Shown here piece by piece: positions 3,695-50,176 of a DNA stretch of 64,000 nucleotides (the first letter of the stretch is position 1; the number at the start of each line of letters is the position of its first letter). A program made the translations under genes and the position numbers. Under the pieces are notes generated by a model that was not told the origin of the DNA, made no database searches, and saw only the letters and a program-made list of their open reading frames with translations. Source of the DNA: Candidatus Versatilivorator sp. (GTDB taxonomy: Bacteria > Acidobacteriota > Terriglobia > Versatilivoradales > Versatilivoraceae). Location of the stretch: positions 4,156,234 to 4,220,233 of the forward strand of contig OZ253547.1 of assembly GCA_965262635.1 (NCBI GenBank), written 5' to 3'.

Positions 3695-3942
3695 GCCGGA
3701 CCTTTGAAAGCTGGCGCGACCAGTGACCGCACGGAAATCGACGGCATCCAGACAGGTTCTAGAGCTAGGAGCCTGCGTCGTGGAACGATTCCGAGCCCTT
3801 CTGGTGGACTATGAGCCCTATTATTGGTGGACAATCAACTTCGGAAAGGATCGTCTGCCCTATTCACAGCAATAATGTATCCTTTTTATGGAAGACTATC
3901 CCTCCACATTTTTCTGCGGCGCAGGCTCCTAGCCCGCATTTC

Positions 3943-5448: not shown

Positions 5449-5746
5449 GCCGTTTTCCAGGGGCGAGCCAAGATGAAGAAGACGGAGGTCAGTGGAAATT
5501 GGAGGGTACCATAAACGGCGCCGGCACCGCCGTAGACAGGGCGGACATCACCGCCGCAGAGATTGGCCGGCTGCGATCGGCCGTGTGCCGCCAGGGCTTG
5601 GGCTGCGCTGCAGCTCGAGACGCAGCCATGGGCCGGGATTTCAGCATCTTGTGACCTGGTCAGCGACAGTTGTATTCTTACCACCGACCCGAAACGACAT
5701 CCCCCAATCATTGTGCATTTCCCGAGGAATCCCTGAGGTCCGACCC

Positions 5747-25672: not shown

Positions 25673-25984
25673 TGCCCACTTCCGGACCACAACGCAGACC
25701 AGAAAGCTGGTCCACCCGGACAAAATATCTCTGTGAGTGTGCTTACCGTAGTCGCCGATCACCCGTTCCCGCTCGGCATTTAACCGGTGAACCCCTCGCC
25801 GGGACCGCGTTTCCTTCGGACCTGTGCAGAACCGCTCGACCAGGTTCAACCATGAGGTTGGCGTGAAGTGCGCGGACGCCGGGCGAACCGGTCGCGGACC
25901 GTCTTCGTCTGGTGGGTTGATTGGTTGTCCGTGACGAAGTGGATGTCGAGACCGGGAAGAACAACTCGCACCGGGAGGCTGCCC

Positions 25985-26407
25985 CTACTCCACGATTCCG
26001 GAGAGGCAGGCACGATGCACGGCGGAGAGCGCAGCTATAACAAGCACCACCAGCACGCCGAGGGCGATGGTCAGGTGGGAGTTGCGGAAGCGGCCCATGA
26101 TCTCGGGCCGGTTCGCAATGACCAGCAGCACTAGCACCACCGGTAGGAAGAGGACGTTGGCTGCCTGCGCCAAAACGATCACTCTGTAGGGCAAGCCGCC
26201 GAACAGTGTTCCGAACAGCACGCCGGTGACCAGCACGAATCCGCCAGGCAGCCGAAGGCGGGCGCTCCGCAGGTCGGAGGGCCAGCCAACGGCGCCGGAG
26301 ACGCCGTAGGCGGCCGCAAGCGGGGCGGTGATCGGCGAGGTCAGCCCGGCGGCGAACAGGGCAACGTGAGCCTGATAGGACCGCCGTTCGCCTGGAAAGC
26401 CCAGCAC
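25985..26407 (-). pseudogene. 3' fragment (duplicate) of the Nramp transporter gene
   Basis: The 140-aa ORF is ~80% identical to the C-terminus of 27347..28582. Nucleotide homology 25960-26370 matches 27320-27720, including 50 bp downstream of the stop. Confidence 0.7.
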
Positions 26408-26422
26408 GCGGCGCGGGAGCGC

Positions 26423-27283
26423 CTACGGCTTTTGGCCGATCGCTTCTCCCCAGGCGATGGCGGAGACAGCACCCGGGGATTTCTTCCATTGATCCAGCAA
26501 GCGGCGCCAGTTCTCGAACTGCTCCCGAGTTGCCAGCCCGTGTTTGATGGCAGCCTCGACGGTCTTAGGGGAAAAGAACCAAGCCACGGAAAAGGTGTGG
26601 TAGAAAGCAACATCCTCAGGCGTGCCGTAGTATTCGAACGAAGCGCTTCCATGGATCACCGAGAACCCGGCCTGAAGAAATCTTCTCGGCAGTTCCTTGC
26701 CCATCTCCGGATGGGATCCGTTAGCCTCCAGCAGCTTCGAGAACGTCACCCACGCATCGGCAAGGGCGTCAAATTGCGGTTCGGAAAACGACGACGAACC
26801 GATCATTTCACGTCCGGAGAGGAGGCCTCCTGACTTCAACACCCTTTTCACCTCGGCCAGGACGGCATCGGTGTCGGGAACGTGCATGAGTAGGGCGTGA
26901 CAGTGGGCGGCATCGAACGTATTGTCCTCAAAGGGAAGTCGGGTCACGTCGCCTGCCCGGAAGACCGCGTTGTGGTGTCCGCCAGCGGTAGCGGCAGCTT
27001 GGGCTATCTCGATCTGGGACTCTTCCATGTCGACGCCGTGCATCTCTCCGGGGTCTACCGCTTTCGCCAACCCCATCGAGATCGTCCCCGGACCGCACCC
27101 CAGATCGAGTAAGCGCATTCCGGGCTTGAGGTGGGCCAGCAGATGGGCGGCATTGGTCTCGGCATTCCGGCGGTCGAGCAATTTCAGGAACTCGTCGCTG
27201 TAACCCATGGTGTAGGAAGGCGTGGGAGTATCCGGGTTCCGGTTACTGTTCATAGCCTGTTCCCTCCCGATCCGTTGCGCCAA
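26423..27283 (-). CDS. class I SAM-dependent methyltransferase
   Basis: LLDLGCGPG motif I, acidic motif II, and post-I region. Confidence 0.8.
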   Translation of the reverse strand: MAQRIGREQAMNSNRNPDTPTPSYTMGYSDEFLKLLDRRNAETNAAHLLAHLKPGMRLLDLGCGPGTISMGLAKAVDPGEMHGVDMEESQIEIAQAAATAGGHHNAVFRAGDVTRLPFEDNTFDAAHCHALLMHVPDTDAVLAEVKRVLKSGGLLSGREMIGSSSFSEPQFDALADAWVTFSKLLEANGSHPEMGKELPRRFLQAGFSVIHGSASFEYYGTPEDVAFYHTFSVAWFFSPKTVEAAIKHGLATREQFENWRRLLDQWKKSPGAVSAIAWGEAIGQKP

Positions 27284-27346
27284 TCGCTTCCGCGGGTGAA
27301 ACTGGCTGATGGCGCGGAAAAGAAACGCACACCGGGAGGCTGCCCG

Positions 27347-28582
27347 CTATTCCACGATTCCGGACAGGCGGGCGAGTTGCAGAGCCGAGAGCGCGGCGAT
27401 GACCAGCACCACCAGCACGCCGAGGGCGTTGGTCAGGCGGGAGTTGCGGAAGCGGCCCATGATCTCGGCCCGGTTCGCAATGATCAGCAGCAGCACCAGC
27501 ACCACCGGCAGGAAGAGGGCGTTGGCCGCCTGCGCCAGAATGATCACCCGGTAGGGCGAACCGCCGAACAGCACACCGAACAGCACGCCGGTGACCAGCA
27601 CGAATCCGCCCAGCAGCCGCAGGCGGGTGCTCCGCAGGTCGGGCGGCCAGCCGAAGGCGCCGGAGACGGCATAGGCGGCTGCCAGCGGGGCGGTGATCGA
27701 CGAAGTCAGCCCGGCGGCGAACAGTCCTGCGGCAAACAGCACCGGGGCCACCGGACCGAGGAGCGGCTCGAGCCGCTGGCCGACGGTGGCCGCACTCACC
27801 TCGACCCCCAGGCCGTGGAGGGGGATGGCGGTGACCAGCACCGAGGCGGTGACCAGCCCGCCGAGCGTGACCGAGCAGAGGGTGTCGAGCCGCGCCTCTT
27901 TCACACTCACGTCCTTGCGCGCGGCGTCCGGCCACTGCTCCAGAGCGGTGCTGGCGTGCAGAAACAGGTTGTAGGAAACGACCGTGGTGCCGATCAGCGC
28001 CAGGACGATGAGCAGCGAGCCCGACGGCACGCTCGGCACCAGCGCGCCCACCGCCAACTCCCGCCAGCTCGGGGCGGTCAGGGCGGCGACGATGCAGAAC
28101 ACGACGCCCATCACCACCACCAGCCCCACCAGGACGTTCTGAATCGTCCGGTAACTGCCGGTCAGCAGCAGACCCGCGGCAAGAGCGCCCAGCAAGGCAA
28201 TTGCGACGCCCGGGTGCAGGCCGGTCAGCGCGTTGAAGCCAAGCGAGGCTCCCAGCAGGTTGCCGGCCTGGAAGGCGGCGTTGCCCAGCAGGATGGTCAC
28301 CGCGATAAGCAGGATTACCGCGCCTCTGAGCACCGGCGACGCGATGCTGGCGCGTATCGACTCGGCCAGGCCCCGGCCCCCGGCAATACCTGCCCGGGCC
28401 GCCATGTCCTGGAGGACGATGGTGGCCGCTACCGAAAAGAGGATGGCCCAGAGCAGGGCGGCGCCGTAACCGGCCCCGGCGGTGCTGGCCGTCACGATGG
28501 TGCCTGGGCCGATGAACGCGGCCGATACCAGCAGCCCCGGTCCAAGTCGGAATTTGGTCATGGGAAGGATCTTAACCCGCAT
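27347..28582 (-). CDS. Nramp-family divalent metal (Mn2+/Fe2+) transporter
   Basis: 411 aa, 11-12 TM, Nramp-like N-terminal GPG motif region. Confidence 0.75.
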   Translation of the reverse strand: MRVKILPMTKFRLGPGLLVSAAFIGPGTIVTASTAGAGYGAALLWAILFSVAATIVLQDMAARAGIAGGRGLAESIRASIASPVLRGAVILLIAVTILLGNAAFQAGNLLGASLGFNALTGLHPGVAIALLGALAAGLLLTGSYRTIQNVLVGLVVVMGVVFCIVAALTAPSWRELAVGALVPSVPSGSLLIVLALIGTTVVSYNLFLHASTALEQWPDAARKDVSVKEARLDTLCSVTLGGLVTASVLVTAIPLHGLGVEVSAATVGQRLEPLLGPVAPVLFAAGLFAAGLTSSITAPLAAAYAVSGAFGWPPDLRSTRLRLLGGFVLVTGVLFGVLFGGSPYRVIILAQAANALFLPVVLVLLLIIANRAEIMGRFRNSRLTNALGVLVVLVIAALSALQLARLSGIVE

Positions 28583-36120: not shown

Positions 36121-36137
36121 TCGATTCCCCGCCTCTC

Positions 36138-36262
36138 TGCAGACAGCACTGGTTGATTGAGTGACCGAGCTTCGAACCTCCGGTTCAGGCGTGGCAACGC
36201 TTTGCTTTGGAACCGGCCGCTTGAGTATGGTGGGTCTTATCTGTCCAAAGAACCAGGGGCGG
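36138..36262 (+). repeat. family C direct repeat, copy 1 (~125 bp)
   Basis: ~85% identical to 36748-36872. Confidence 0.7.
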
Positions 36263-36292
36263 AACGTTACAGAGTTGTATTGGATTCGACGG

Positions 36293-36508
36293 CTAGGCCA
36301 GGAAGGATCTGAGTAACCACACCAGAAGGAATCCGACCAGGATTCGGACCAGCCATTTTGTTTCCGAGAGGTCCCTCTTGATCGTCTTAAGGTCTGACTC
36401 GATGCCCGCCAACCGATTCTCGTAGGTGCCAAGCTCTTCTGCGGCCTCCTGGGCCTGGAGATCGGAGGCCCCAGAGGCTTTGAAAGCCGCGTAGGTTTTT
36501 GACAGCAT
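36293..36508 (-). CDS. XhlA-like small coiled-coil/TM protein
   Basis: 71 aa, coiled coil then C-terminal TM (..LKTIKRDLSETKWLVRILVGFLLVWLL..). Confidence 0.45.
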   Translation of the reverse strand: MLSKTYAAFKASGASDLQAQEAAEELGTYENRLAGIESDLKTIKRDLSETKWLVRILVGFLLVWLLRSFLA

Positions 36509-36747
36509 GATTGCTATGGTGCTCTCTCGTGCTTAGAGTTTACCACATCTTCTCAGAGAGCGAAGCCCTCCCCCCCTGTGGGGAAAGCAGCGATTTTCGC
36601 CGCATTGCTTTAATCTCCAGCGACCGCTTACGACAGTTCGGAACACCAACTATTTGCTGAGTTTGCTTCATCAGCAACTGCTGTGGGTCCGGCACTTCCA
36701 GTCGATCCCGGAACTGGTTCGAGCACTGGAAGAGTTTCGCGCTCTCT

Positions 36748-36872
36748 ACAACCAGCATTGGTTGATTGAGCGCCTCGGCTTCGAGCCTCTGGTTCAGGCA
36801 AGACAACGCCTTGCCTTGCAACCGACCGCTTGAGTATGGTGGGTCTTATCTGTCCAAGAAATCAGGGGCGGT
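36748..36872 (+). repeat. family C direct repeat, copy 2
   Basis: Shares ...ccgcttgagtatggtgggtcttatctgtccaa... with copy 1. Confidence 0.7.
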
Positions 36873-37183
36873 ACACTTGAGCCAATCTTGCACCTGACCT
36901 GGTAGCGACTTCGAATTTCAATAGGGGTAGAGCGTCGATGAGCAGAGTCCGTAGAAAAGCCTCAAGGTCACCAAACTGCAGTACAACTGAGACACGTTGC
37001 GTGGGGGTAGGGAGGGCTCGACCTCTACCCGAATGCGCTCGCTGCCCACACGAATTCCTGAAGCGGTCTCAAATTAGTCAACGCCTCGGCTGTTGGTCGC
37101 GGCAGATAGTGCCGTGTCAAACAATTTCCCTAGTGATAGCGCCACGCTTCCGGGGTCTGAAATTGTGCCGCTGAGTCTCAACT

Positions 37184-38410: not shown

Positions 38411-38490
38411 GAGCAGGGGCGGCTGTCAACGGTCATCAGAAACCGCGTCAATCTGAACAGATGGTGGACCACAACATCTTGTAAGAATTA

Positions 38491-39845
38491 GGGGACGTTG
38501 TTGAATTACTGGAATAACTGTCTCCGTTTCCTATTCCTGACCGACTGAAACGGCGTAGCAGATGCCTTCCCGAACGCTTCGGTACACTCGCAGGCACTCA
38601 CACCGCGATTCGTCCTCGAAACGCGGCCGAATCGTTGCACCAGCAACTCGCACACGGTATCCTTAATTCTCCGCCTGTTTTTTCCTCCCTCCCTAAGCGT
38701 CGTCGCACGCTTGGTTCTCCAGGTTTTCGATGACAACCACCCCGTCCCGAAAACAGCAGGTGTGCTGTACGGGACGTTTTTGAAGTACCGAAAAAACCCT
38801 ACACAGTTTCTCCCTACACAGTTTCCAAGTTGTCACTACCCAAAGGAGAGCAGCAATGCCTCGCCAGGCACGGCTGGACGCTCCCGGCACCCTCCACCAC
38901 GTCATGCTGCGCGGTATCGAGCGCCGGGCGATTGTGACCGACGACGCAGACCGTCACGAGTTTGTCAGGCGCTTGGGAGCCTCGGCCATGCAGAGCCGAA
39001 CGTCGGTCTATGGCTGGGTCTTGTTGACCAATCATGCCCACCTGCTGCTACGTAGCGGTCCTGATGGGTTACCCTGGTTGATGCGCCGCTTTCTGACCGG
39101 GTATGCCCAAGCCTACAATCGGCGCCACCAGCGTCACGGTCACCTGTTTCAGAATCGCTACAAGTCCATTGTGTGCGAGGAGGACGGCTATTTCATGGAG
39201 TTACTCCGCTACATCCATCTCAATCCTATTCGTGCCAGGCTGGTCAGGACCTTAAGCGAATTGGAGCGTTATCCCTGGAGCGGGCATGGAGTACTGTTGG
39301 GAGAGATAGCGGGGAGCTGGCAAGAACGGGAGTGGGTGCTGAGTTGGTTTGGCAAAACGACCGATAGTGCCATACAGGCCTATCGCGAATTTGTAGCGGA
39401 GGGCGTGGGACAAGAGCGACGGCCTGAGCTGGTCGGAGGCCGGCAGGTCCGATCAGGAGGGAGTTGGTCGGTAGTCCGCGGCCGAAGTCGGCAAAAAGTA
39501 GGCGATGAGCGGATCCTTGGCGGTAAGGTCTTCGTGGCCACGGTACTACGGGAAGCGGAAGAGCGAATACGCCGACAACTGGCGGTGCGAAGAAACCAGT
39601 CTGGGGTGTCCGAGGCAATAGAGCGGGTCTGTCGGCAGGCTGGTGTCAGCGCTCGGGAACTGCAGGCGGGCAGTCGGCGAAGGCCGGTGTCGAAGATTCG
39701 AGCCTTGCTGGCACAACGGCTAGTGGCAGAGTTCGGGCTGTCCCTGGCGGAAGTTGCTCGCCAATTAGGGGTCTCCCTCTCCGCAATTGCCAAGAGTTTA
39801 CAGAATCGCCAGACAGAATAATTCCAGTAATTCAACAACGTCCCC
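38491..39845 (+). mobile_element. IS200/IS605-superfamily-like insertion sequence with 27-bp TIRs (ggggacgttgttgaattactggaat) flanked by TA
   Basis: Left end at 38491, right end ...aattccagtaattcaacaacgtcccc at 39845, and flanks tta|...|tac. Confidence 0.8.
38856..39821 (+). CDS. Y1 HuH transposase (IS200-like Y1_Tnp domain) fused to a DnaA-C-like HTH
   Basis: HuH motif LLTNHAHLLL, catalytic Tyr region YIHLNPIRARLV, and C-terminal ..AEFGLSLAEVARQLGVSLSAIAKS.. Confidence 0.85.
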   Translation: MPRQARLDAPGTLHHVMLRGIERRAIVTDDADRHEFVRRLGASAMQSRTSVYGWVLLTNHAHLLLRSGPDGLPWLMRRFLTGYAQAYNRRHQRHGHLFQNRYKSIVCEEDGYFMELLRYIHLNPIRARLVRTLSELERYPWSGHGVLLGEIAGSWQEREWVLSWFGKTTDSAIQAYREFVAEGVGQERRPELVGGRQVRSGGSWSVVRGRSRQKVGDERILGGKVFVATVLREAEERIRRQLAVRRNQSGVSEAIERVCRQAGVSARELQAGSRRRPVSKIRALLAQRLVAEFGLSLAEVARQLGVSLSAIAKSLQNRQTE

Positions 39846-39864
39846 TACTGACTCCTAGCGGCTG

Positions 39865-40768: not shown

Positions 40769-41212
40769 ATGAGGGGATCGACACGATCGATCCTGTGTAC
40801 TACACTCCGGCATGGCCATCAGACGATGCAAGAACCGGGCACGCACGCCGGGGTTGCCGAGATGATCTCGCAGCTGATCGACTTGGCGAAGAGCCTGCGA
40901 GACGCGCAGCGGCACGGCGAAGAACTCGGCCTGAGCGGCGAGGAAACTGCCTTCTACGACGCCCTGGCGGAGAACAGGTCAGCCAGAGAAGCGATGCAGA
41001 GCGATACGCTGCGTCTCTTGGCCCGGAAACTGACCGAAATGGTCAAGTACATGCCCAAGCTTGACTGGACCCATCGCGCGTCGGTACGGGCGAGCCTGCG
41101 GCGGAATGTTCGCCGGTTGCTGGCAAAGTACGGCTACCCTCCGGATCTGGCCGAAGACGCGACGCAGCTCGTCTTGCGACAGGCAGAGTTGTCCACGGAG
41201 AACTCGGAGTAA
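40769..41212 (+). pseudogene. C-terminal fragment of a type I restriction enzyme R subunit (HsdR C-terminal/DUF3387 region)
   Basis: ..EELGLSGEETAFYDALAENRSAREAMQSDTLRLLARKLTEMVKYMPKLDWTHRASVRASLRRNVRRLLAKYGYPPD.. matches the conserved HsdR C-terminus. There is no helicase/nuclease core upstream. Confidence 0.55.
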
Positions 41213-41625
41213 ACCAGGATGGCTTGGCCTCGCCGCTACTGTTTGGTAGCGCCATTCGACAAGCAGCGCGCCAGTTGACGCGGGTCGCCGGCCCGAAACT
41301 CGTGGAAGTACGCCGCACCTTGATCCTGGGCGAGCGAATCCTTCATGTTAACGGGACTTATGGATCATCTTTCCGACTGATGTTTTACCCCTTCACGGAG
41401 GGAAACATTGACCCTGAGCGACCCCAACATCACCTCATGGGCCGGCGTCCGAAATTCCGGCCCGTGAGCACGGCCCAGACCCGCTCAAAGACGCTCCCAG
41501 AACGGGCGTTAGGCGTCTTTAGAACGGGCCGGGGGGCGAGCATTGAACAAGTGCCCGAGGACTCATAGCCGTGATCTACGTGAACCGCCGTGGCGATCGC
41601 AGGCGAGGCAGACGTACGGCTTGAT

Positions 41626-41926
41626 GATGAAAGGGCATCACGTCAGATACCTCCAGCAGTTCGTTCATATTCTTCCCGGTGACTTGGTACTTCTTCCGAC
41701 GGATGGTCGCTGCTATCAGGTGCATCTGCGAGTGGTAGTACCGCCCCGCTGCCAGGAACTTGCCCGCGCTGGGATACCGGCCTACTACTACTATTTCGAT
41801 ATCCCTGGTCGGAACTGGTACGAGCACGCCCACCGAGTGGCACGGCATCCCGCGTCCGCAAGCGCACCCTCCGAGGTGCTGGCCGTCGATCCGGATGCGT
41901 GCGCCGACTTGGACGGAGACGCATAA
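41626..41926 (+). CDS. hypothetical small protein (100 aa), possibly first gene of the nuclease-helicase operon
   Basis: The ORF ends 2 nt before the ATG of the next gene; there is no homology call. Confidence 0.3.
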
Positions 41927-41928
41927 CC

Positions 41929-42726
41929 ATGGTCGCCGCGCTTGCACCGGAGATACGCTACTCGGGGTCGAAGGACTCCGCGCAGTGGCGCGGCCACGTT
42001 GTCGTGGATGAGGACCGCTTCAAGTCCTACGTGGCAGGCCGCGTGAAGGCGCGGATGGAAGACGACGAAGCCCAAGGCCAATTTGCGGCAGAACTGCACG
42101 GCATGGCCACGACGGGGATGGCCACCGAGTTCGTGGAGACTCTCCTTCAAGCAGTTTCGGAGGAAAAGTCGTGGGCTGTCGGAGAGGCCCTGGCAGAGTG
42201 TGTTCTTGCCGACGACGAGACGCGTGAGGTCTGCTGGCCTTGGAATCTCGTACGTGACCGCCGCACGCCAAGGGCCAGTCTGCCGGGGGCGGACCTGGTT
42301 GGCTTCTGCAAGGAGGGCGATGCCGTCCTCTTGCTCTTTGGGGAGGTGAAGACATCCTCCGATGCAAGCACCCCTCCCAACGTGATGAACGGAAGCGGGG
42401 GGATGGCATGGCAGCTCAAGAACGAAGCGACTGACCTCAACATCCAGCACGCATTGCTGAAGTGGCTTCGCGCGCGATGCGCATCTGCCGAGCACCAGGC
42501 GCTCTATCAGGCGGCGGTTCATCGCTATGTCCAGTCGCTTGGGAAGGAGATCCTTCTCGTAGGGATACTTCTTCGCGACACGGAGCCCAATGAACTGGAC
42601 GTGACTGCCCGGGCTAAGGTCCTCGCAAAGAGCCTTGGCAGCCCGACGCGCATCGAAATCACCGCTTGGTATCTGCCTGTTCCTATCAAGGACTGGCCGG
42701 CTTTGCTTCATGGGGGTGCACCATGA
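41929..42726 (+). CDS. PD-(D/E)xK nuclease-like protein (HamA/DUF1837-like candidate)
   Basis: 265 aa. The motif ..PGADLVGFCKEGDAVLLLFGEVKTS.. gives D122...E139-V-K141. An RBS ggaga lies upstream, and the stop overlaps the next gene's start (ATGA). Confidence 0.55.
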   Translation: MVAALAPEIRYSGSKDSAQWRGHVVVDEDRFKSYVAGRVKARMEDDEAQGQFAAELHGMATTGMATEFVETLLQAVSEEKSWAVGEALAECVLADDETREVCWPWNLVRDRRTPRASLPGADLVGFCKEGDAVLLLFGEVKTSSDASTPPNVMNGSGGMAWQLKNEATDLNIQHALLKWLRARCASAEHQALYQAAVHRYVQSLGKEILLVGILLRDTEPNELDVTARAKVLAKSLGSPTRIEITAWYLPVPIKDWPALLHGGAP

Positions 42727-45700
42727 CAGCAGCCACCTGGCTTCGAACGGCAGTTGGCGAGGAGCGCCTTCGCCAGACTTCGACAGAGGCGAGTCGCCGG
42801 AGGCTCACCAATGCTCTGAGTTCACCTTCTCAAGCAACAGACGATCGGGAACTCCAGTTCGTCACGAACGCGCTTGAGTTGCAGCTATTCGATGCCCTGG
42901 ATGACGAGGGTCGTGTGGTTGAGCTCCGCGCTGTTGCTGCGGAGACCTTCCGGATCGCCAGAACACTGGCATGGCCGCAGGAGCCGGTTGCCGCAGCTCA
43001 GTGGCTCGTACGGTTGGGGTGCATCGCGGTGCTCGGTGATCGCTCGGCCGATTTCCGTCGCATTGTCACGGAGTGCGAGCTTCCGGCGCTTGCGCCCGAT
43101 TCGGCCGACTGGGGAGTCCGCGTCTGGTCGTCAGTCTTGGACGTGTGGTTGCGTCTCCTGCGAAAAAAAGGGTGGGGCGATCTCGATGCTGTCCAGGAGC
43201 GAATCGTCGCCATTCGCGAAGCACAGCGAGCTTTCGAACCAGCATTCCTGAAAGAAGCGGAGGCTCGCAAGGATGTGCGACCGGCCTGGGAACTCATGGC
43301 CCAGTACCATCTCGCGAAGGCTGCTGAGATTCTGGGCGCCTATGTCGGCCAGGGCTCAGTCGATGGCCGCTATGACATTCGACAGCAGCTTGAAGCGCAA
43401 TTTGACCGAGCTATTGCCGCGTCGGCTCGTGGGCAACTGGTCGAGCGAGAGATGCTGTCGCGGCTCCTTGCTCGGGCCGCACGCGTGATGGTGGACAACA
43501 GCATCTGGACAGTGACGCGCGCGGTGAACAGCAGGGTGACCCGATTTGTGCAGTCGTTGACAGCTCGCGATCGAAAGCGCCCGATCTTCGAGATGCTACC
43601 GCCTCAGAGACGGACCCTTAGGGAACACGGCCTCCTCGGGTCTGGCCATCGATCAGTCGTAGTGAGCTTGCCGACTTCAAGCGGCAAGACGTTCATCGCC
43701 GAGTTCCGGATCCTCCAGGCGCTAAACCAGTTCGATCAAGAGAACGGGTGGGTTGCCTATCTGGCCCCCACGCGAGCACTCGTGAATCAGCTCACCACGC
43801 ACCTCCGCCGCGATTTCTCCCACCTTGGGACTGTCGTAGAAAAGGTGAGTCCGGCACTGGAGGTGGATGGTCTCGAAGCAGGGATGCTGACCGAGGCCGA
43901 CCGGGCGCAGCAGTTCCGAATCCTCGTGACCACCCCTGAGAAGCTGGACCTAATGTTGCGCGGGGGATGGGAGGACGAGATTGGCCGTCCCCTCACGCTG
44001 GTCGTCGTGGACGAGGCGCACGGCCTGGCCTCCGAGAACCGCGGGCTCAAGCTCGAGCTGCTTCTAGCGACCATCAACCGCGAGTGCCGCTACGCGCAGT
44101 TCCTCTTGTTGACGCCTTTCATCCGCAACGGCGCAGAGATTGCCCGCTGGCTTTCGCCAGACAGCAACAAGAATATCGACATCGGCGTCGATTGGACCCC
44201 GAACGACCGCGTAGTGGCGATCGCCCGGGTGAACCAAGGCAATCGTAGAGGCGAATTCAGCTTGTCTCTGCACACTCGACACACGACGCACAACACCCTC
44301 GACGTCCCGGAACAGATTGGCATCGGCGAGCCGCGTCCTCTCGGCTTGGCCTGGTCTGCAGTGAAGAACTCGCCGGGCAAGATCGCAGCAACAACCGCAC
44401 AAGTTCTTAAGAAGCGTGGCACCGTCATTGTGCTCGCTGACACTCCGTTGGCAACGTGGGGGATCGCCGACGCATTCAAAATCGAAGAGAACAAGCGAAC
44501 GCTAGAGGGTGACGACCTCGGACACGTGCAACGGTTCCTCATCGACGAAATGGGAGGGGACTTTCCGCTGGCCCGCTTGCTCGAATATGGAGTCGGTGTT
44601 CACCACGCGGGAATGTCCGAGGACACGCGCTCTCTCGTGGAGTGGCTGACCGAGAACGATCGCCTGGGGGTTTTGGTCGCAACGACCACCATTGCTCAAG
44701 GCGTGAATTTTCCGGTGTCCGGCGTCGTGTTTGCCAGCCACCAGTACCGGCTCAGAGAGAGGCCATGGCGAAAGGACATGCCTCCCGAGGATTTCTGGAA
44801 CATTGCCGGACGAGCGGGTCGGGTGGATCAGGGAGACCTTGGGGTTATCGCTCTTGCGGCCAAGGATGACGCTAAACAACAAGTGCTTGAGCAGTTCATC
44901 GATGCTTCAGTCAGCGAGCTCAACTCGACGCTCATCGAGTTGGTACAGACAGCGGCGAATGCCGGCTCGCTGCTGCAGTTGGAATCGCTGTCGTATCAGC
45001 CCGGTTGGTCCGCCTTTGTCCAATACCTGGCTCACACGTACCGTCAGATCGGGAATCACGAGCAGTTCGCAGCGCAGGTCGAGCAAGTTCTCCGGGGCAC
45101 ACTTGGCTTCCAGTCGCTGCGCAAGAGCCACAAGGGATGGGCGGACAGTTTGGTGCAAGGCGTGTACGCCTATGCCGAGAGAATCAAGGGGAAGCCGCTA
45201 AGCCTCGTCGATGCAACGGGGTTCTCCTGGGAGTCGGTCAATGCCACGCTGGCAAGGCTCGGCCAGGAGAAACTGCCGAACGACGTATGGTCGCCCGAGT
45301 TGTTCGCCGGCCGCAGAGACGACCTTCGTAGGATGATGGGACTCCTCCTGCAGGTGCCTGAGCTGCAAGATTCGCTCAAAGACGTCACTGGCGGAACGAG
45401 CCCGGATGGAGACAAACTCGCCCGAATCATCTGCGCCTGGGTTCAGGGGCGTCCGCTCATCGAGATGGCCACCGATTACTTCAGCCAACCCGGCGAGGAG
45501 GAGAGTGATGAAGCCGCAACGGGTCCCGTCACTGCAATGACCAAGTGCTGCCAGAGCGTGTTCGGGAGGTTGACACAAACTGCATCGTGGGGCCTCTCCG
45601 CGCTTCAGTCACTCACGCTTGGAAATGCCTTCGATGAGTTGTCTCCCGACGAGCAACGAAGCCTCCGCAACCTGCCGGCGCGCGTGTACTACGGCGTCAA

Positions 45701-45911
45701 CAGCGACGAGGCCGTCGCCCTCAGGCTGCTGGGGGTGCCCAGGACGGCAGCGCCGGCGCTCGCGATGGGTCTTGCGGTCAAAGCGGACGAGCCGCTTCAC
45801 CAGGTTCGCGGTCGGCTCCGAGCGGCCGACGTGAGCGAGTGGACGAAGGCGATGGGCGAGCGCGGGGTGAGCTACCATCGAGTCTGGTCAATCATGGAAG
45901 GCGAGTCTTGA
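42723..45911 (+). CDS. SF2 DEAH-box helicase, 1062 aa (Ski2/Hel308-like; HamB-like candidate) with ~320-aa N-terminal and ~400-aa C-terminal helical extensions
   Basis: Walker A LPTSSGKTFIAEF, DEAH box LVVVDEAHGL, motif VI NIAGRAGRVDQG, and VLVATTTIAQGVNFP. Confidence 0.85.
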   Translation: MTAATWLRTAVGEERLRQTSTEASRRRLTNALSSPSQATDDRELQFVTNALELQLFDALDDEGRVVELRAVAAETFRIARTLAWPQEPVAAAQWLVRLGCIAVLGDRSADFRRIVTECELPALAPDSADWGVRVWSSVLDVWLRLLRKKGWGDLDAVQERIVAIREAQRAFEPAFLKEAEARKDVRPAWELMAQYHLAKAAEILGAYVGQGSVDGRYDIRQQLEAQFDRAIAASARGQLVEREMLSRLLARAARVMVDNSIWTVTRAVNSRVTRFVQSLTARDRKRPIFEMLPPQRRTLREHGLLGSGHRSVVVSLPTSSGKTFIAEFRILQALNQFDQENGWVAYLAPTRALVNQLTTHLRRDFSHLGTVVEKVSPALEVDGLEAGMLTEADRAQQFRILVTTPEKLDLMLRGGWEDEIGRPLTLVVVDEAHGLASENRGLKLELLLATINRECRYAQFLLLTPFIRNGAEIARWLSPDSNKNIDIGVDWTPNDRVVAIARVNQGNRRGEFSLSLHTRHTTHNTLDVPEQIGIGEPRPLGLAWSAVKNSPGKIAATTAQVLKKRGTVIVLADTPLATWGIADAFKIEENKRTLEGDDLGHVQRFLIDEMGGDFPLARLLEYGVGVHHAGMSEDTRSLVEWLTENDRLGVLVATTTIAQGVNFPVSGVVFASHQYRLRERPWRKDMPPEDFWNIAGRAGRVDQGDLGVIALAAKDDAKQQVLEQFIDASVSELNSTLIELVQTAANAGSLLQLESLSYQPGWSAFVQYLAHTYRQIGNHEQFAAQVEQVLRGTLGFQSLRKSHKGWADSLVQGVYAYAERIKGKPLSLVDATGFSWESVNATLARLGQEKLPNDVWSPELFAGRRDDLRRMMGLLLQVPELQDSLKDVTGGTSPDGDKLARIICAWVQGRPLIEMATDYFSQPGEEESDEAATGPVTAMTKCCQSVFGRLTQTASWGLSALQSLTLGNAFDELSPDEQRSLRNLPARVYYGVNSDEAVALRLLGVPRTAAPALAMGLAVKADEPLHQVRGRLRAADVSEWTKAMGERGVSYHRVWSIMEGES

Positions 45912-46226
45912 GACCCGGGAACCGGCCCACACTCGCCTTGGAGTTGCCCCAGTTCCGCGCACAGGCTAAGGCTTTCGCTGCTGCCGGCGTTGTCAGCTCG
46001 TGGTCGTCCCCCGCCGCGCCGGCCGCTGCCGGCTGGCTTGTAACGGCTCGACGACCGAGGACCGCGCATTGATCAGTCTGCGCGTGGCGTTGATCCCGGT
46101 CACTCGTCTCCCTTACGCGAACGACTGCGCGTCCACTTCCACCTCAGCGGTGATGCTGGCATCGTCGGGCCAGGACTGCGTGGGGAACGCGTTCTTGTCC
46201 GGGTTGTCACTGACGGACGAAAAATA

Positions 46227-46486
46227 GGGGACGTTGTTGAATTACTGGAATAACTTTCCCATTTTCTTATTCCTGACTGACCAAAACGGCGAAGCAGATG
46301 CCTTCCCGAGCGCTTCGGCACACTCGCAGGCACTGACACCAAGATTCGTCGTCAAAACGCGTCCGAATCGTTGCACCAAGCACTTTCCCCACGGTTTTCG
46401 CGGATTTTCACTCTGTTTTTTCCTCCCTCTCTAGGCGTCGACAAAATCGCCGGAAAGAGTAATTCCACTAATTCAACAACGTCCCC
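46227..46486 (+). mobile_element. MITE derived from the IS at 38491-39845 (left 215 bp + right 45 bp, no transposase), TA-flanked
   Basis: ggggacgttgttgaattactggaataac...taattccactaattcaacaacgtcccc with flanks ata|...|tat. Confidence 0.8.
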
Positions 46487-46853
46487 TATTGACCCGGAGA
46501 AAAGAGGAACACCACATCTTGCGGACGGCCGCGCTCGAGTAGGCCGAGCTCGGCACCGGACACCCCACGCATCGGGGATGCTCGCTGATCCTCAAGCCAC
46601 CGTATCAAACTGCACGGGCAATACCTTGCAATTTCAAATACTTAGATGCCGGTGGCGCTGCCCTTCGGACTCCTCCTTGCCACAAACCCAGCTTCATGCT
46701 CAGGACACGACTGTGGCATGCTGGCACTCCCAGCGCTAAGCTATCTACACACAGGGGAACACCATGAACTGACGGTGCGCGCCTCCAAAGCAGCGTAAGC
46801 ATCCGGCGAAAGCCGCAGGGTGTGTCGGTCTGGAGCCAGGACCGGGCATGCCG

Positions 46854-47381
46854 TCAGCCTTCGAGCTCGCGCGGTACCACTTTCCGAAGCCCTATTGCCG
46901 AGTGTGCCCGACCTCCGAGCGTGCTGGCCAGTTTCCGGAGGGCCGCCGCATGCTTCCTTATCGTATCTGCCACAGGAGGTTGCCCGGTCTGCTCTCCCAA
47001 AGATCCTCCGTACCTCAGGGTAACGGCGGCGTCTTTGTAATGCCCGAAGGCTTCCCGTATATCTTCCATCGGGACGCAGGACGCCACAGCGACCTTTTCC
47101 CTCCACTCGTCGGTCAGGCGGTTCCAAAGAATGACGAGGTCGTGCTTTTTGGGAACGGACCTCCCCATCTCCCGGTCGAGAATGTGCTTCAGGCCCAGTT
47201 CGATACTGTTGATCCGCAAAAGGACGGAACCTAAGGTGAGCGCGAACATCACATCGCCCTTGGAGAGGCCGCGCGCCTTCCATTCCTCTTCGTCCACGCC
47301 TTCAAGCATGTTGGCAGCCATGGCGTAAATCCTTGCCCCCAAGCCGAAATTTTCGAGGTTCTTCTGGCGTGACTTGGACAT
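46854..47381 (-). CDS. hypothetical protein, possible HEPN-like (Rx5H)
   Basis: 175 aa; LKHILDREMGRSVPKKHDLVILW. Confidence 0.4.
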   Translation of the reverse strand: MSKSRQKNLENFGLGARIYAMAANMLEGVDEEEWKARGLSKGDVMFALTLGSVLLRINSIELGLKHILDREMGRSVPKKHDLVILWNRLTDEWREKVAVASCVPMEDIREAFGHYKDAAVTLRYGGSLGEQTGQPPVADTIRKHAAALRKLASTLGGRAHSAIGLRKVVPRELEG

Positions 47382-47485: not shown

Positions 47486-47851
47486 TCACAACTCGTCCCA
47501 ATTCTTTGGCCGACCCTCGTGAAGGAGCTTGAACAGCGTCCTTCTGGCGATATCGAATCCGCTGGCGAACCACCGCTGAGTTTCCAGCGGAGAGGCGTTG
47601 CGCCGCCCGCCGTGAACGATGTTCGACCGTGCGTTGTAGAATCTCCTGACGGTCTCCTTGATCCGTTCCCTGCTCACGGAATGGGTTCCAAGGTACCGGG
47701 AAGCCCTGTTCTGTAATGTAGCGGAAATGTCCCGCCGCGGTAGGTCGTACATGTTTTCCAACGCGATCACAACATCGACAATCCTCATCTCATCCGCGAA
47801 CCCTTCGCCCCTTGCAAGTGCCTGGGAAAGCCGACTCACAATCGGCGCCAC
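47486..47851 (-). CDS. HEPN-domain protein (Apea-like Rx4HG motif), possibly 5'-truncated by MITE insertion
   Basis: YNARSNIVHGG motif. It has a GTG start, and the reading frame stays open upstream right to the MITE edge at 47879. Confidence 0.5.
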   Translation of the reverse strand: MAPIVSRLSQALARGEGFADEMRIVDVVIALENMYDLPRRDISATLQNRASRYLGTHSVSRERIKETVRRFYNARSNIVHGGRRNASPLETQRWFASGFDIARRTLFKLLHEGRPKNWDEL

Positions 47852-47878
47852 CTGGACGTACCGCTCAGGCTCAAAATA

Positions 47879-48137
47879 GGGGACGTTGTTGAATTACTGG
47901 AATAACTTTCCCAGTTTCTTATTCCTGACTGACTAATACGGCGAAGCAGATGCCTTCCCGTGCGCTTCGGCACACTCGCAGGCACTGACACCGCGATTCG
48001 TCCTCAAAACGTGTCCGAATCGTTGCACCAAGCAGTTCCCCCACGGCATCCTGGATTTTCACTCTGTTTTTTCCTCCCTCTCTAGGCGTCGACAGAATCG
48101 CCAGACAGAGTAATTCCACTAATTCAACAACGTCCCC
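47879..48137 (+). mobile_element. second MITE copy derived from the same IS, TA-flanked
   Basis: ~95% identical to 46227-46486, with flanks ata|...|tat. Confidence 0.8.
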
Positions 48138-48651
48138 TATTGATGTTCGTTGCCCGCAGGTCCTTCATGAGCAAGAACAGGTGATAGGGATCCGTGGGGC
48201 TCGGCTCGAACTCCAAGGCTTCGTACCAGCCGCGCGCCTCGTCGTCCTTGGCATGGACGAGAAGCGCCCGAATACCGGCGATGTCGGCGGCGGCGGCGGT
48301 TCTGAGCAGTGCGTCCTTGACGAGCGCCTTGCCCAGGCCTCGTGCTTGCCAGGTCAGGTCGACCGCGAGACGGGCGAGGAGCATCACGGGGATCGGGTGC
48401 CGGGCCAGCCCCTTGCCGCCTCGGAGAGGTGCGTCGGCATGTTCGACTGCTCCCGCCGCAAGGCTGTAGTAGGCGAGCACCGTCAATCCCCGGCAGGCGA
48501 CATAGGTCCGGGCACTGTCGGCCTTCTGGTTCGCCAGCGCGAAACGCTTCAGAAAACGATCGAGTGGCTCTTTCCCGCACTCGAAGGAATCGACATCGTG
48601 CGTTGCGTCGAGCTTCTCGACTGGAGACAACCCCTCCTGTCCCGGCGTCAC
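48124..48651 (-). CDS. GNAT-family acetyltransferase toxin (TacT/KacT-like)
   Basis: GNAT core (..VLAYYSLAAGAV..RLAVDLTWQARGLGKALVKDAL..). The GTG start overlaps the antitoxin stop (GTGA). Confidence 0.7.
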   Translation of the reverse strand: MTPGQEGLSPVEKLDATHDVDSFECGKEPLDRFLKRFALANQKADSARTYVACRGLTVLAYYSLAAGAVEHADAPLRGGKGLARHPIPVMLLARLAVDLTWQARGLGKALVKDALLRTAAAADIAGIRALLVHAKDDEARGWYEALEFEPSPTDPYHLFLLMKDLRATNINRGRC

Positions 48652-48924
48652 TCCAGCACGCTCTTCTCCGCAAGCAATCGAGTCAAGCGGGGCTTGTCGG
48701 CGACCGGACGGTCGAGGATAGCCTGGAAGGCCTGCCACTGGCGATCGTCGAGCCGGAAAATCCGCCGGTCGACCAGGGCGTCCTCAGCGGCGTTGATCCC
48801 TGCCTCGAGCAGAAACTCCGTGACGTTCTTGTGTGACGAGGCCGCAGCCCGCTGAAGCAACGCCTTCACGTTTGAGGTCGTCCGAACCTCAATGCGTTCC
48901 GACTTGTTTTCGGCGATGGCCATG
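48648..48924 (-). CDS. DUF1778-family antitoxin (TacA-like)
   Basis: MAIAENKSERIEVRTTSNVKALLQRAAASSHKNVTEFLLEAGINAAEDAL... is the typical RHH/DUF1778 sequence. Confidence 0.7.
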
Positions 48925-49516
48925 AATGTTCCTCCGATTGGATCCACAGACTTTCTGCCATACGGATAGTGTACGGACAAGAACGCATCGACAGGCACCC
49001 CACAGTGCCTCACATCCTCCTGACAGTCCACGGCACGGTGCCGACGATGTGGGCCCTCATCGGCCAGGCAGGCATAGGGCTCGCAGGCTAGGTTGGCGGA
49101 GATCAGCCGCAACCGAGGCGGGGCTCGTCGCCGCGCAATGTCTCGACGCTCTTGACCGCCAGGCTGCCGCCCACAGCACGGCCATCTCGCCGGTGCCCCG
49201 GCCCACTCATCTGGTCGTCACGCTCCCAGACAACGGCTGGAACCAGGCGATCCGTCGAGCGCGGAGATCGCAAAAAAAGTTGCGCGGAAAGTTTGCGCAC
49301 AACTCGTCTTCTCTATCCTTCTGATTTCAGATGGGTTACGCCTGCGATCGATCGGCCGCCGACTGAAAGTCGCCGCGCGCCGTGCTCGCCGAGGCCCGTA
49401 TTCATTGATTTTTTTTGGCACAGGGGGTTGCCGATCCCCTCTGTTCGCGCACAACACGCACAGCTACGGTGGTGGGAGTTCGTTTGCACAGTCAGCAGGG
49501 TGACGATGCCGCAACG

Positions 49517-49990
49517 ATGTTGAGATTTCCGACCGTCAAGGCCCGCACGGGTCTGTCGCGCAGCACGATCTATCTCCGCATCTCCCGCGGCACGTTTCCC
49601 GCCCCCGTGTCCCTCGGGGGCCGTGCAGTGGGCTGGATCGAGGCCGAGGTGAACGCCTGGCTCACCGCGCGGATCGCGCAACGCCGGCTGATCGCGGCCC
49701 GGGGAGCGGGGGCTCCAGGCAGCGTTTGCCGGCAAGCTCAAAGACCAGATCGAGCAGGGCGTGGCGTCGTGGCAGAAGCGGTGGAAGCCCGGCGAGCGCC
49801 GAGCGCGTCGGCGAAAGTGGTGGAGGCGGCGGGAGTCGAACCCGCGTCCGAAATTACTTGGCGAAAAGAATCTACGTGTGTATCCGGTTCCTTTTTGGTT
49901 TCGCCGCCCGACATTGAGAACCGGCAAGAGTGCCTGGCGACTAGACCGGTGAGTTTCACCGGCGGCCCCCGGACGTCTGCCACCGGCTAG
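49517..49990 (+). CDS. AlpA-family phage/island regulatory protein (excisionase-like HTH); only the first ~65 aa are conserved and the ORF has no stop before 49990
   Basis: MLRFPTVKARTGLSRSTIYLRISRGTFPAPVSLGGRAVGWIEAEVNAWLTAR matches AlpA. The C-terminal 90 aa are low-complexity and antisense to ssrA. Confidence 0.55.
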   Translation: MLRFPTVKARTGLSRSTIYLRISRGTFPAPVSLGGRAVGWIEAEVNAWLTARIAQRRLIAARGAGAPGSVCRQAQRPDRAGRGVVAEAVEARRAPSASAKVVEAAGVEPASEITWRKESTCVSGSFLVSPPDIENRQECLATRPVSFTGGPRTSATG

Positions 49991-50176
49991 CCTGTTAGTC
50001 GACGCTCCACATCCGCCGCACAGGTATCAGCGGAGGGAACGGCTACTTAAGTTTTTTTAAGCAGCAAGTGCCAATGGTTCATCAGCAGTTACATTTAGGT
50101 CCATCTTTTTAACGAGGGGATGGTCCTCGACACGCATCTTCAGCCTTGATAATCCCGTCGAAACCCTTTCGCCCCC
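49818..50176 (-). ncRNA. ssrA: tmRNA (ssrA)
   Basis: The minus strand reads 5'-GGGGGCGAAAGGGUUUCGACGGG...GGACGCGGGUUCGACUCCCGCCGCCUCCACCA-3'. The 5' GGGGGCG pairs with the 3' CGCCUCC to form a 7-bp acceptor stem. The T-arm is GGUUCGACUCC and the end is CCA. A tag-like frame ...ADEPLALAA-UAA lies ~90-120 nt from the 5' end. Confidence 0.75.

Follow-up and report, generated by a model that had tools for sequence, protein, structure and literature searches.

A probable divergent Hachiman-type nuclease-helicase pair, already catalogued as PADLOC candidate PDC-M23, in an acidobacterial defence island

Introduction

A nuclease-helicase gene pair in Candidatus Versatilivorator sp. (Acidobacteriota) raises the question of whether it belongs with the Hachiman anti-phage systems, and if not, whether it is an independent immunity system, a module of a type I R-M enzyme, or a housekeeping helicase with an unrelated neighbour. 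The window, by which we mean the whole 64,000-nucleotide stretch analysed (contig OZ253547.1), had previously been described from its letters and open reading frames in a first-pass annotation, which proposed an operon of a small ORF, a nuclease and a large helicase that was either Hachiman-like or new. The two large genes are called A and B here.

Gene layout and genomic surroundings

Genes A and B occupy positions 41929–45911, and both are intact. They are translationally coupled, as the stop codon of A ends at 42726 and the ATG of B begins at 42723, forming an ATGA overlap, with B ending at 45911. Upstream, the TAA of the small ORF at 41924–41926 leaves a 2-nt gap before the ATG of A at 41929. 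The three co-directional ORFs, the 2-nt gap and the ATGA overlap are all seen in the sequence as first described; the start given for the unit, 41626, is out of frame, with ATGs lying at 41624 and 41627. The features discussed below are the following.

40769–41212, plus strand: truncated HsdR C-terminal domain, left over from a type I restriction subunit (PF11867, PADLOC REase_I)
41624–41926, plus strand: small ORF, 100 aa from the ATG at 41624, rejected as a gene (unconserved, no family match)
41840–41928, plus strand: conserved leader of the A-B cassette, about 90 nt (homology to Vicinamibacterales locus L012)
41929–42726, plus strand: gene A, 265 aa, predicted HamA-like PD-(D/E)xK nuclease (full-length match to PADLOC PDC-M23A)
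42723–45911, plus strand: gene B, 1062 aa, HamB-like Ski2-like SF2 helicase (full-length match to PADLOC PDC-M23B)
46223–46490 and 47875–48141: two MITE-like elements of about 268 bp with 33-nt terminal inverted repeats
49818–50176, minus strand: tmRNA gene, 3.9 kb beyond B

The HsdR relic lies 0.7 kb upstream of A and matches both PF11867 (T1RH-like_C, E=8.3e-45, model positions 214–328 of 329) and PADLOC REase_I (E=5e-26, model positions 908–1020 of 1029). This relic, the MITEs and a tmRNA gene about 4 kb away had all been reported and were all found in the window. The island that carries A-B is rich in IS and integrase and adjoins the tmRNA gene, and the proposed defence-island setting is upheld as an island of defence and mobile elements. 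A duplicated tmRNA 3′ end marking the far boundary of the island was looked for and not found, and a scan upstream of A found no sigma-70-like promoter.

Assignment to PDC-M23 and distribution of the pair

Both proteins match PADLOC candidate PDC-M23 from end to end and in the order A then B. Protein A aligns to the PDC-M23A HMM (PDLC04527) with E=1.5e-94 over residues 7–261 (model positions 6–259 of 263), and protein B to the PDC-M23B HMM (PDLC04531) with E=0 and 1348 bits over residues 4–1061 (model positions 4–1060 of 1060). On these profile matches A-B is assigned to PDC-M23, and the pair is already catalogued. The suggestion that a nuclease outside DUF1837 would make the pair an undescribed system fails, A being related to HamA by fold and profile-profile comparison (see below). 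The window copy is intact, belongs to an already listed candidate and lies in a mobile island beside a tmRNA gene. PDC-M23 corresponds to cassette CAS_00096 (FAM_02460>>FAM_00699), proposed on the basis of its embedding in BREX, DISARM or type I R-M loci (Payne et al., 2024, bioRxiv 10.1101/2024.01.29.577857). In the literature searched, PDC-M23 is not mentioned in main texts, no published statement linking it to Hachiman was found, and no paper was found that uses 'Hachiman-like', 'HamA-like' or 'HamB-like' in the sense meant here; no experimental test of any PDC-M23 member was found in the searchable literature.

The family comprises 450 clusters at 50% identity. A genome-locus search with the single A protein yielded 10 loci, and in the set fetched via a PDC-M23A family member (L001–L024) A is followed directly by B in all 24 of 24 loci. 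The adjacency holds in every examined locus that extends past A, including those of members at 31–48% identity. Copies of A-B that are 68–92% identical occur in Acidobacteriota, Gemmatimonadota, Pseudomonadota, Bdellovibrionota and Rhodothermales, and the pair is spread over at least five bacterial phyla; no homologues of A were found in plasmid and phage collections. Values of dN/dS are 0.08–0.35 for A-B and 0.17–0.29 for B. The pair is under purifying selection and has spread horizontally.

Nesting in type I R-M operons

In six loci (L005, L011, L013, L017, L018 and L021) A-B lies between hsdM/hsdS and hsdR, and in several of the nested loci the start of A overlaps the hsdM stop codon and the stop of B overlaps the next gene. 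Such an arrangement might indicate that A-B is an accessory or 'guard' module dependent on the type I R-M enzyme, either PrrC-like, silenced by the R-M complex until phage inhibition of restriction sets it free, or triggered by DNA ends that HsdR produces. The independence of the six loci, the overlapping start and stop codons, the discovery of PDC-M23 through exactly such embedding and the HsdR relic kept upstream of A would all fit this reading, under which the window copy, with its R-M partner decayed, would be orphaned or non-functional. However, R-M genes are missing from the neighbourhood of A-B in at least five lineages (the window species, Vicinamibacterales L012/L025, Gemmatimonadota L007, Rhodothermales L016, and L014), and in these R-M-free lineages the genes remain intact and under purifying selection. 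Canonical Hachiman, moreover, acts alone (Tuck et al., 2024, PMC12278908), and many autonomous systems have been found embedded (Payne et al., 2024). We therefore regard dependence on R-M as unlikely.

It is comparably doubtful that PDC-M23 is a branch of Hachiman functionally wired to type I R-M, co-transcribed and translationally coupled with hsdM. If this were so, DNA ends made by HsdR might be the activating signal of PDC-M23, or the pair might fire on anti-restriction that disables the R-M complex, as PrrC does; a second line of defence would then be layered inside the first, and stand-alone copies, including that of the window, would descend from wired ones and have become autonomous again.

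Relationship of A and B to HamA and HamB

Protein A contains the motifs G120-A-D122 and E139-V-K141 (PGADLVGF...LFGEVKTS), exactly the signature first noted. In an alignment of 86 family sequences reaching down to 28% identity, E86, K141, S143 and Q162 are invariant and D110, D122 and E139 are conserved in at least 90%, and the predicted catalytic residues are E86, D122, E139 and K141. The structure of A was predicted using AlphaFold with the 86-sequence alignment, a single-sequence run having given a pLDDT of 37, and in the model A is a PD-(D/E)xK nuclease whose HamA fold spans ∼90% of its length, including insertions beyond the PD-(D/E)xK core. Fold and conservation together uphold the earlier view of A as a nuclease of this class, for which a structure prediction had been the proposed check.

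Profile searches with A itself give no match to Pfam HamA/DUF1837 (PF08878) even at E≤1, nor to the NCBIfam and PADLOC HamA models, whereas other members of the family do match: 16 of the 86 match PF08878 weakly (best E=2.4e-5) and 6 match PADLOC HamA1. When the family profile is compared with the PDB, the sole matches are to HamA, at a sub-threshold E=0.22, with the GE, G-x-D and E-x-K motifs in register and E139/K141 aligned with HamA E138/K140. Comparison with canonical HamA in hhalign gives a probability of 81.7% (E=1.1e-5, 109 columns), a moderate rather than overwhelming value that spans the N-terminal ∼150 residues, the canonical profile consisting of N-terminal fragments only (a search with a 102-aa fragment retrieved truncated HamA proteins only). 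The possible membership in DUF1837 thus finds no echo in Pfam, and kinship with HamA emerges instead from fold and profile-profile comparison, by which A appears to be a remote HamA homologue.

Protein B has the complete SF2 core that had been claimed, with GKT from residue 321, DEAH at 430 and GRAGR at 696, and extensions of ∼300 aa at the N-terminus and ∼320 aa at the C-terminus; Pfam detects DEAD, ResIII and Helicase_C. The next-best PADLOC matches after PDC-M23B are at least 16 HamB models (E=2.1e-54 to 1e-14), and three HamB1 profiles align from residues 172–221 of B, that is, 90–135 residues N-terminal of RecA1. The B family profile aligns to HamB in the PDB (8vx9_B) with E=7e-35, collinear through both RecA domains (309–741 against 322–748), and the core starting at 309 rather than 322 leaves an N-terminal extension of near-equal length. 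The HamB-like character of B is borne out by these PADLOC and PDB alignments. The N-terminal ∼300 aa showed no similarity to solved HamB as a stand-alone profile against the PDB, nor to one fragmented canonical HamB N-terminus in hhalign. Past the helicase core, B is ∼100 residues shorter than ECOR31 HamB, and the C-terminal OB-like barrel may therefore be absent. The objection that B is too large for a HamB does not stand, as ECOR31 HamB has 1174 aa and PADLOC HamB models extend to 1163 positions.

With a predicted HamA fold in A and a HamB-like B, the Hachiman-like alternative of the first-pass annotation is sustained, and A-B is probably a divergent relative of Hachiman, a HamAB-like anti-phage system of two genes, namely PADLOC's PDC-M23. 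Alternatively, an independent nuclease-helicase immunity system might have converged on the Hachiman architecture, with A unrelated to HamA and working by another mechanism. The silence of Pfam DUF1837 on A, the separate listing of PDC-M23 and Hachiman by PADLOC and an N-terminal domain of B that cannot be aligned to that of HamB are consistent with convergence, as is a Foldseek search of the A model against the PDB, which gave no significant match and placed FokI, not HamA, at the top. We consider convergence quite improbable.

The upstream ORF and the conserved leader

Since the small ORF does not qualify as a gene, the proposed three-gene operon comes down to a two-gene unit. Neither Pfam, PADLOC (including its HamC models) nor NCBIfam gives a match to it, and it is present only in contigs of the same species, while every locus from another species lacks it ahead of A, so that the co-occurrence seen for A and B does not extend to it. 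Its N-terminal two-thirds lie in DNA that the closest other-species locus lacks, and only its last ∼30 codons fall within conserved DNA, where the ancestral frame is broken by two frameshifts. Gene callers place a minus-strand ORF here in three of four contigs and a 233-aa fusion, produced via an indel, in the fourth, and in codon-position GC the ORF is indistinguishable from its antisense ORFs. The leader is near-identical to that of Vicinamibacterales locus L012 only from ∼41840 on, homology upstream being lost, and it holds a Shine-Dalgarno GGAG at 41915–41918. In locus L020 the corresponding upstream gene is intact, encoding 503 aa with HARE-HTH and Mrr_cat domains and ending in ...EHGIGVRKRTLEVLEVDADVFVDMERDS and a stop codon 2 nt before A; judged from this homology, the leader at 41840–41928 reads as the decayed 3′ end of a gene for an Mrr-like restriction endonuclease, with two +1 frameshifts. 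The co-directional placement of the ORF, its stop 2 nt before A and the third gene, hamC, upstream in type II Hachiman might suggest a regulatory or HamC-like third component, but the missing family match, the restriction to one species, the broken frame and the disagreement of gene callers on strand and extent make this very improbable. The 100-aa ORF is an artefact and lies outside the A-B system.

A housekeeping Hel308/Ski2-type repair helicase beside an unrelated gene, as might be read from the best NCBIfam matches of B (Hel308-type helicases) and its top PDB sequence matches (ASCC3, Brr2 and Hel308), is effectively refuted by NCBIfam scores that are all far under cut-off (e.g., 133 bits against 887), a patchy cross-phylum distribution at 68–92% identity, the strict pairing of B with A, and the position of the pair beside the tmRNA gene, within an island rich in IS and integrase.

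Proposed mechanism and significance

The divergent Hachiman-type pair probably works like HamAB, as a helicase sensor that releases a DNA-degrading nuclease, the model being E. coli ECOR31 HamAB (Tuck et al., 2024). B would bind A 1:1 through its N-terminal helical region and hold it inactive while intact DNA is surveyed. Once loaded on aberrant DNA, for instance free 3′ ends or the damage and replication intermediates of infection, B would hydrolyse ATP. Its helicase domains would move as a result and so release or activate A, whose PD-(D/E)xK site (E86, D122, E139 and K141) would degrade DNA indiscriminately, aborting the infection. Complex formation, trigger, DNA clearance and phage protection are features that we infer by analogy only.

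The proposed link ties an orphan candidate to the mechanistically understood Hachiman system, and PDC-M23 therefore gains a testable mechanism. The HamA family would reach well beyond Pfam DUF1837, NCBIfam and current HamA HMMs; if the family is wider than these models detect, the prevalence of Hachiman is underestimated. The frequent nesting of A-B in type I R-M loci also makes it a convenient system in which to study possible cooperation between an embedded defence system and its host.

Comparison with known systems

Like its PDC-M23 relatives, which are often lodged inside type I R-M operons, the window copy keeps the gene order A then B, although it differs from PDC-M23 as defined in having no functional R-M host, only the HsdR C-terminal relic. 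PrrC in the type I R-M locus EcoprrI, cited by Payne et al. (2024) as the archetype of embedding, is likewise a defence effector nested among type I R-M genes, but it is an unrelated protein, an anticodon nuclease, and the existence of stand-alone copies is at odds with a functional dependence of A-B on R-M. The type IIS nuclease domains of FokI, N.BspD6I and PaqCI superpose on A over only ∼115–140 residues, and they lack both the HamA-type insertions and a helicase partner. In contrast to type II Hachiman (HamC-HamA-HamB), A-B has no hamC, the ORF in its place being unconserved and without a PADLOC match. AbpAB, an E. coli variant of Hachiman (PDB 8ZUE), differs in that AbpA has 531 aa, with an extra N-terminal Cap4-like nuclease and an inactive HamA-like site, whereas A is a single-domain protein with its site intact. 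The closest comparison is with ECOR31 HamAB (PDB 8VX9/8VXY), where a D-ExK nuclease of ∼260 aa is also followed by a Ski2-like helicase of more than 1000 aa. Relative to ECOR31 HamB, B has DEAH rather than DEGH as motif II and a C-terminal region ∼100 aa shorter, stand-alone profile searches with its N-terminal domain find no similarity to the HamA-binding N-terminal alpha-helical bundle (NAH), and the PDC-M23 family, unlike ECOR31 HamAB, is often nested in R-M operons. Nevertheless, the predicted fold of A follows HamA over ∼90% of its length with the catalytic residues in register at 12% identity, and B aligns collinearly to HamB through RecA1 and RecA2 behind an N-terminal extension of near-equal length.

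Gene organization of the A-B locus

Region 41624–45911 contains three co-directional ORFs on the plus strand, as the first-pass annotation had described: a small ORF of 100 aa, gene A, encoding a nuclease of the PD-(D/E)xK type, and gene B, encoding a helicase. The truncated HsdR and the nearby tmRNA gene that it reported are likewise found.

Features of the A-B locus and its surroundings (window coordinates)
40769–41212, truncated HsdR C-terminus (PF11867, E = 8.3e-45, last third of the model only; also PADLOC REase_I)
41624–41926, plus strand, small ORF (ATGs at 41624 and 41627; stop TAA at 41924–41926, 2 nt before A)
41929–42726, plus strand, gene A (ATG start 41929, 265 aa)
42723–45911, plus strand, gene B (ATG start 42723, 1062 aa)
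46223–46490 and 47875–48141, two MITE-like elements of ~268 bp each with shared terminal inverted repeats
46854–47381, minus strand, ORF of 175 aa between the MITE-like elements
47486–47851, minus strand, ORF of 121 aa between the MITE-like elements
48124–48738 and 48648–49112, minus strand, GNAT toxin and TacA antitoxin pair
~49.5 kb, AlpA-family regulator
49818–50176, minus strand, tmRNA gene, 3.9 kb past the end of B

The A/B junction is an ATGA overlap. The translation of A contains D122 and E139-V-K141, the motif singled out in the first reading, and the GKT, DEAH and GRAGR motifs of B, by sequence a Ski2-like SF2 helicase, start at residues 321, 430 and 696.

Family assignment

A has no match in NCBIfam or in Pfam, whose profiles thus lend no support to the DUF1837 membership raised earlier. 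B matches only DEAD, ResIII and Helicase_C in Pfam and, far below threshold, only Hel308-type models in NCBIfam (e.g., 133 bits where the cut-off is 887). PADLOC-DB profiles match both proteins end to end, assigning them to the candidate system PDC-M23: A to PDC-M23A (E = 1.5e-94) and B to PDC-M23B (E = 0, 1348 bits, residues 4–1061 aligned to model positions 4–1060 of 1060). Behind the PDC-M23B models in PADLOC-DB, B next matches over 16 models of HamB (best E = 2.1e-54), in agreement with the suggested HamB relationship, and three of these align to B from 90–135 residues upstream of the helicase core. PDC denotes "phage defence candidate", a collection of single- and multi-gene sets drawn from genes nested in BREX, DISARM and type I R-M loci and placed in PADLOC for future testing; PDC-M23 is its cassette CAS_00096, FAM_02460>>FAM_00699 (Payne et al., bioRxiv 10.1101/2024.01.29.577857). 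No published experimental test of PDC-M23 was found in the literature; a later study assayed other PDCs and not M23.

Relationship of A to HamA

The A family is large and without annotation, with 1,760 matches in a 90%-clustered database and 450 clusters at 50% identity; among the 120 matches listed none has a Pfam domain, and the few with source names are called "hypothetical protein". In an alignment of 86 family members with identities down to 28%, E86, G120, K141, S143 and Q162 are invariant and D110, D122 and E139 are each at least 90% conserved, indicating from E86, K141, D122 and E139 that the E...D...ExK site is under selection. The only match of the alignment profile in the whole PDB is HamA, at a sub-threshold E of 0.22, with GE, G-x-D and E-x-K in register, such that E139 and K141 correspond to HamA E138 and K140, mutation of which abolishes Hachiman defence (Tuck et al. 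2024, PMC12278908). The Pfam HamA model is weakly matched by 16 of the 86 members and PADLOC HamA1 by six, and profile-profile comparison of the A family with canonical HamA gives a probability of 82% (E = 1.1e-5) over 109 columns, a stretch containing an RD-R loop that is the counterpart of the HamB-contacting loop of HamA.

The AlphaFold model of A built from this alignment is very confident (pLDDT 96.5, pTM 0.92). Generic PD-(D/E)xK nucleases score against it below a large gap (FokI, 6.8; N.BspD6I, 6.5; PaqCI, 6.0), and the same type IIS neighbours have been reported for HamA itself (Tuck et al. 2024, PMC12278908). The structure prediction bears out the nuclease fold expected at first reading; Foldseek missed the HamA relationship. 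We conclude that A is a remote HamA homologue beyond the reach of current DUF1837/HamA models.

Comparison of B with HamB

The B family profile matches solved HamB (8vx9_B) with E = 7e-35 in one collinear stretch, residues 309–741 against 322–748, and these starting positions imply N-terminal extensions of nearly equal length. The earlier objection that HamB usually has about 800–900 aa fails, as ECOR31 HamB has 1174 aa and the PADLOC models for HamB extend to as many as 1163 positions. The N-terminal helical bundle of HamB is its defining, HamA-binding element (Tuck et al. 2024, PMC12278908); the isolated N-terminal profile of B gives no match to solved HamB or to an N-terminal fragment of a canonical HamB.

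Co-occurrence, spread and selection

Conserved co-occurrence, proposed as a check in the first reading, is observed: B directly follows A in all 24 loci retrieved through a PDC-M23A family member (L001–L024), wherever the contig reaches past A; among them are distant A members (31–48% identity), whose helicases have 796–1089 aa. Copies 68–92% identical to that of the window occur in Vicinamibacterales, Bryobacterales, Gemmatimonadota, Bdellovibrionales, Rhodothermales, Pseudomonadales, Burkholderiales, Rhodanobacteraceae, Chromatiales and one member of Rhodobacterales; such identity across phyla indicates horizontal transfer of A-B. No homologues were found in plasmid and phage collections. 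The dN/dS values are 0.08–0.35 for A and 0.17–0.29 for B.

The small ORF and the leader of the cassette

The third gene of the proposed operon is not borne out. A start at 41626 would be out of frame with both ATGs; the ORF has no match in Pfam, PADLOC (including HamC models) or NCBIfam, and it is found only in same-species contigs, being missing upstream of A in all other loci. Relative to the closest locus of another species, L012, whose A is 92% identical, DNA similarity begins only at ~41840 (~90 nt before the ATG of A) and is lost further upstream. This conserved leader is what remains of the 3' end of a restriction gene of the Mrr-like kind. In locus L020 the gene immediately before A (925–2436) is of the Mrr type and encodes 503 aa with HARE-HTH and Mrr_cat domains and the C-terminus ...EHGIGVRKRTLEVLEVDADVFVDMERDS followed by the stop, ending 2 nt before A; in the window this 3' end is readable only through two +1 frameshifts. 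Gene callers predict a minus-strand ORF at the position of the small ORF in three contigs and an indel-created fusion of 233 aa in a fourth. Lack of matches, restriction to one species, the frameshifted Mrr relic and the discordant gene calls together show that the small ORF is a chance ORF across a pseudogene junction. A and B alone make up the system, and the conserved leader before them carries a GGAG ribosome-binding site.

The Mrr 3' end persists as cassette leader in genomes other than that of L020. In a canonical, frameshifted Hachiman locus (L029) an Mrr_cat gene (5344–5763) also lies directly upstream of hamA, and the Mrr-Hachiman association may be recurrent.

Nesting in R-M operons

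The pair is nested in a type I R-M operon in six independent loci, where it sits between hsdM/hsdS and hsdR and stop and start codons often overlap. The main rival explanation, a PrrC-like dependence of the A-B family on the enclosing R-M enzyme, is nevertheless improbable: in at least five lineages, including that of the window, the pair stands alone amid IS elements, integrases and toxin-antitoxin genes, and intact stand-alone copies under purifying selection speak against obligate dependence.

The ORF upstream of A in Thiorhodococcus (L005, 7670–8023; 117 aa) duplicates the hsdR N-terminus, with 52% identity to residues 1–114 of the hsdR downstream of B, which suggests that A-B entered by recombination within hsdR. 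Three R-M-embedded loci (L011, 11983–13163; L017, 7090–7812; L021, 13851–14822) carry after B a conserved ORF of ~176 aa, whose start overlaps the B stop, and then one of ~220 aa. Neither has a Pfam match, and both are missing from the window; possible identities are diverged half-HsdS subunits or an additional component in that sub-branch.

Mobile elements and island variation

A Y1 (IS200/RAYT-like) transposase gene (38856–39821) lies within 38489–39847, an element with 36-nt terminal inverted repeats (TAGGGGACGTTGTTGAATTACTGGAAT...). The two ~268-bp elements are non-autonomous copies with the ends of this element and bracket a 1.4-kb segment downstream of B; six repeat ends are observed in the window against zero expected. 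The MITE-like elements noted at first reading are present, but their arrangement with the transposase resembles RAYT/REPIN rather than a classical IS-derived MITE. Direct repeats unrelated to A-B occur at 25955–27724 (three colinear segments of 30, 160 and 242 nt, ~1.36 kb spacing, 83–88% identity) and within 36133–36874 (133 nt, at 36133 and 36742, 83% identity).

The 175-aa minus-strand ORF has a weak HEPN match (E = 0.033) and the 121-aa ORF an HEPN-like RSNIVH (Rx4H) motif; neither matches PADLOC, and together they possibly form an uncharacterised HEPN pair or a toxin module. The GNAT/TacA pair, the AlpA-family regulator and the tmRNA gene form the island end (48124–50176); a duplicated tmRNA 3' end was sought as the other boundary and not found. 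Same-species contigs L001, L003 and L004 have identical A-B and cargo after B that differs from the TacAT arrangement of L002 and the window: L001 and L003 carry AbiTii with a TM2 protein, and L004 carries PycTM together with a Gabija-like combination of OLD-TOPRIM ATPase and UvrD helicase. The tmRNA side of the island is a strain-variable defence hotspot.

Relation to Hachiman and other known systems

The window locus is an ordinary instance of the catalogued candidate PDC-M23, and the alternative of an undescribed system is accordingly set aside, whereas the Hachiman-like reading is correct, A being a remote HamA homologue and B matching HamB models. We place PDC-M23 as a divergent Hachiman branch. 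What is new here is modest, namely the link from PDC-M23 to HamA and the recurrent R-M nesting.

A variant locus, L024, encodes a 684-aa protein (1785–3839) with the PDC-M23A domain at residues ~450–664, followed by a 1089-aa helicase, with a Fic gene adjoining. The 450-aa N-terminal region has no Pfam match, and the fusion is reminiscent of the extra N-terminal domain of AbpA.

Beyond the fold, catalytic residues, helicase motifs, coupling, co-occurrence, selection and defence contexts observed here, the most likely working of the pair is that of its homologue ECOR31 HamAB (PMC12278908). By this analogy B would scan intact DNA as a heterodimer with A, keeping the nuclease inactive, and on damaged or free-ended DNA would load and hydrolyze ATP; the resulting helicase-domain movement would release or activate A, which would then degrade DNA non-specifically, and the infected cell would die.
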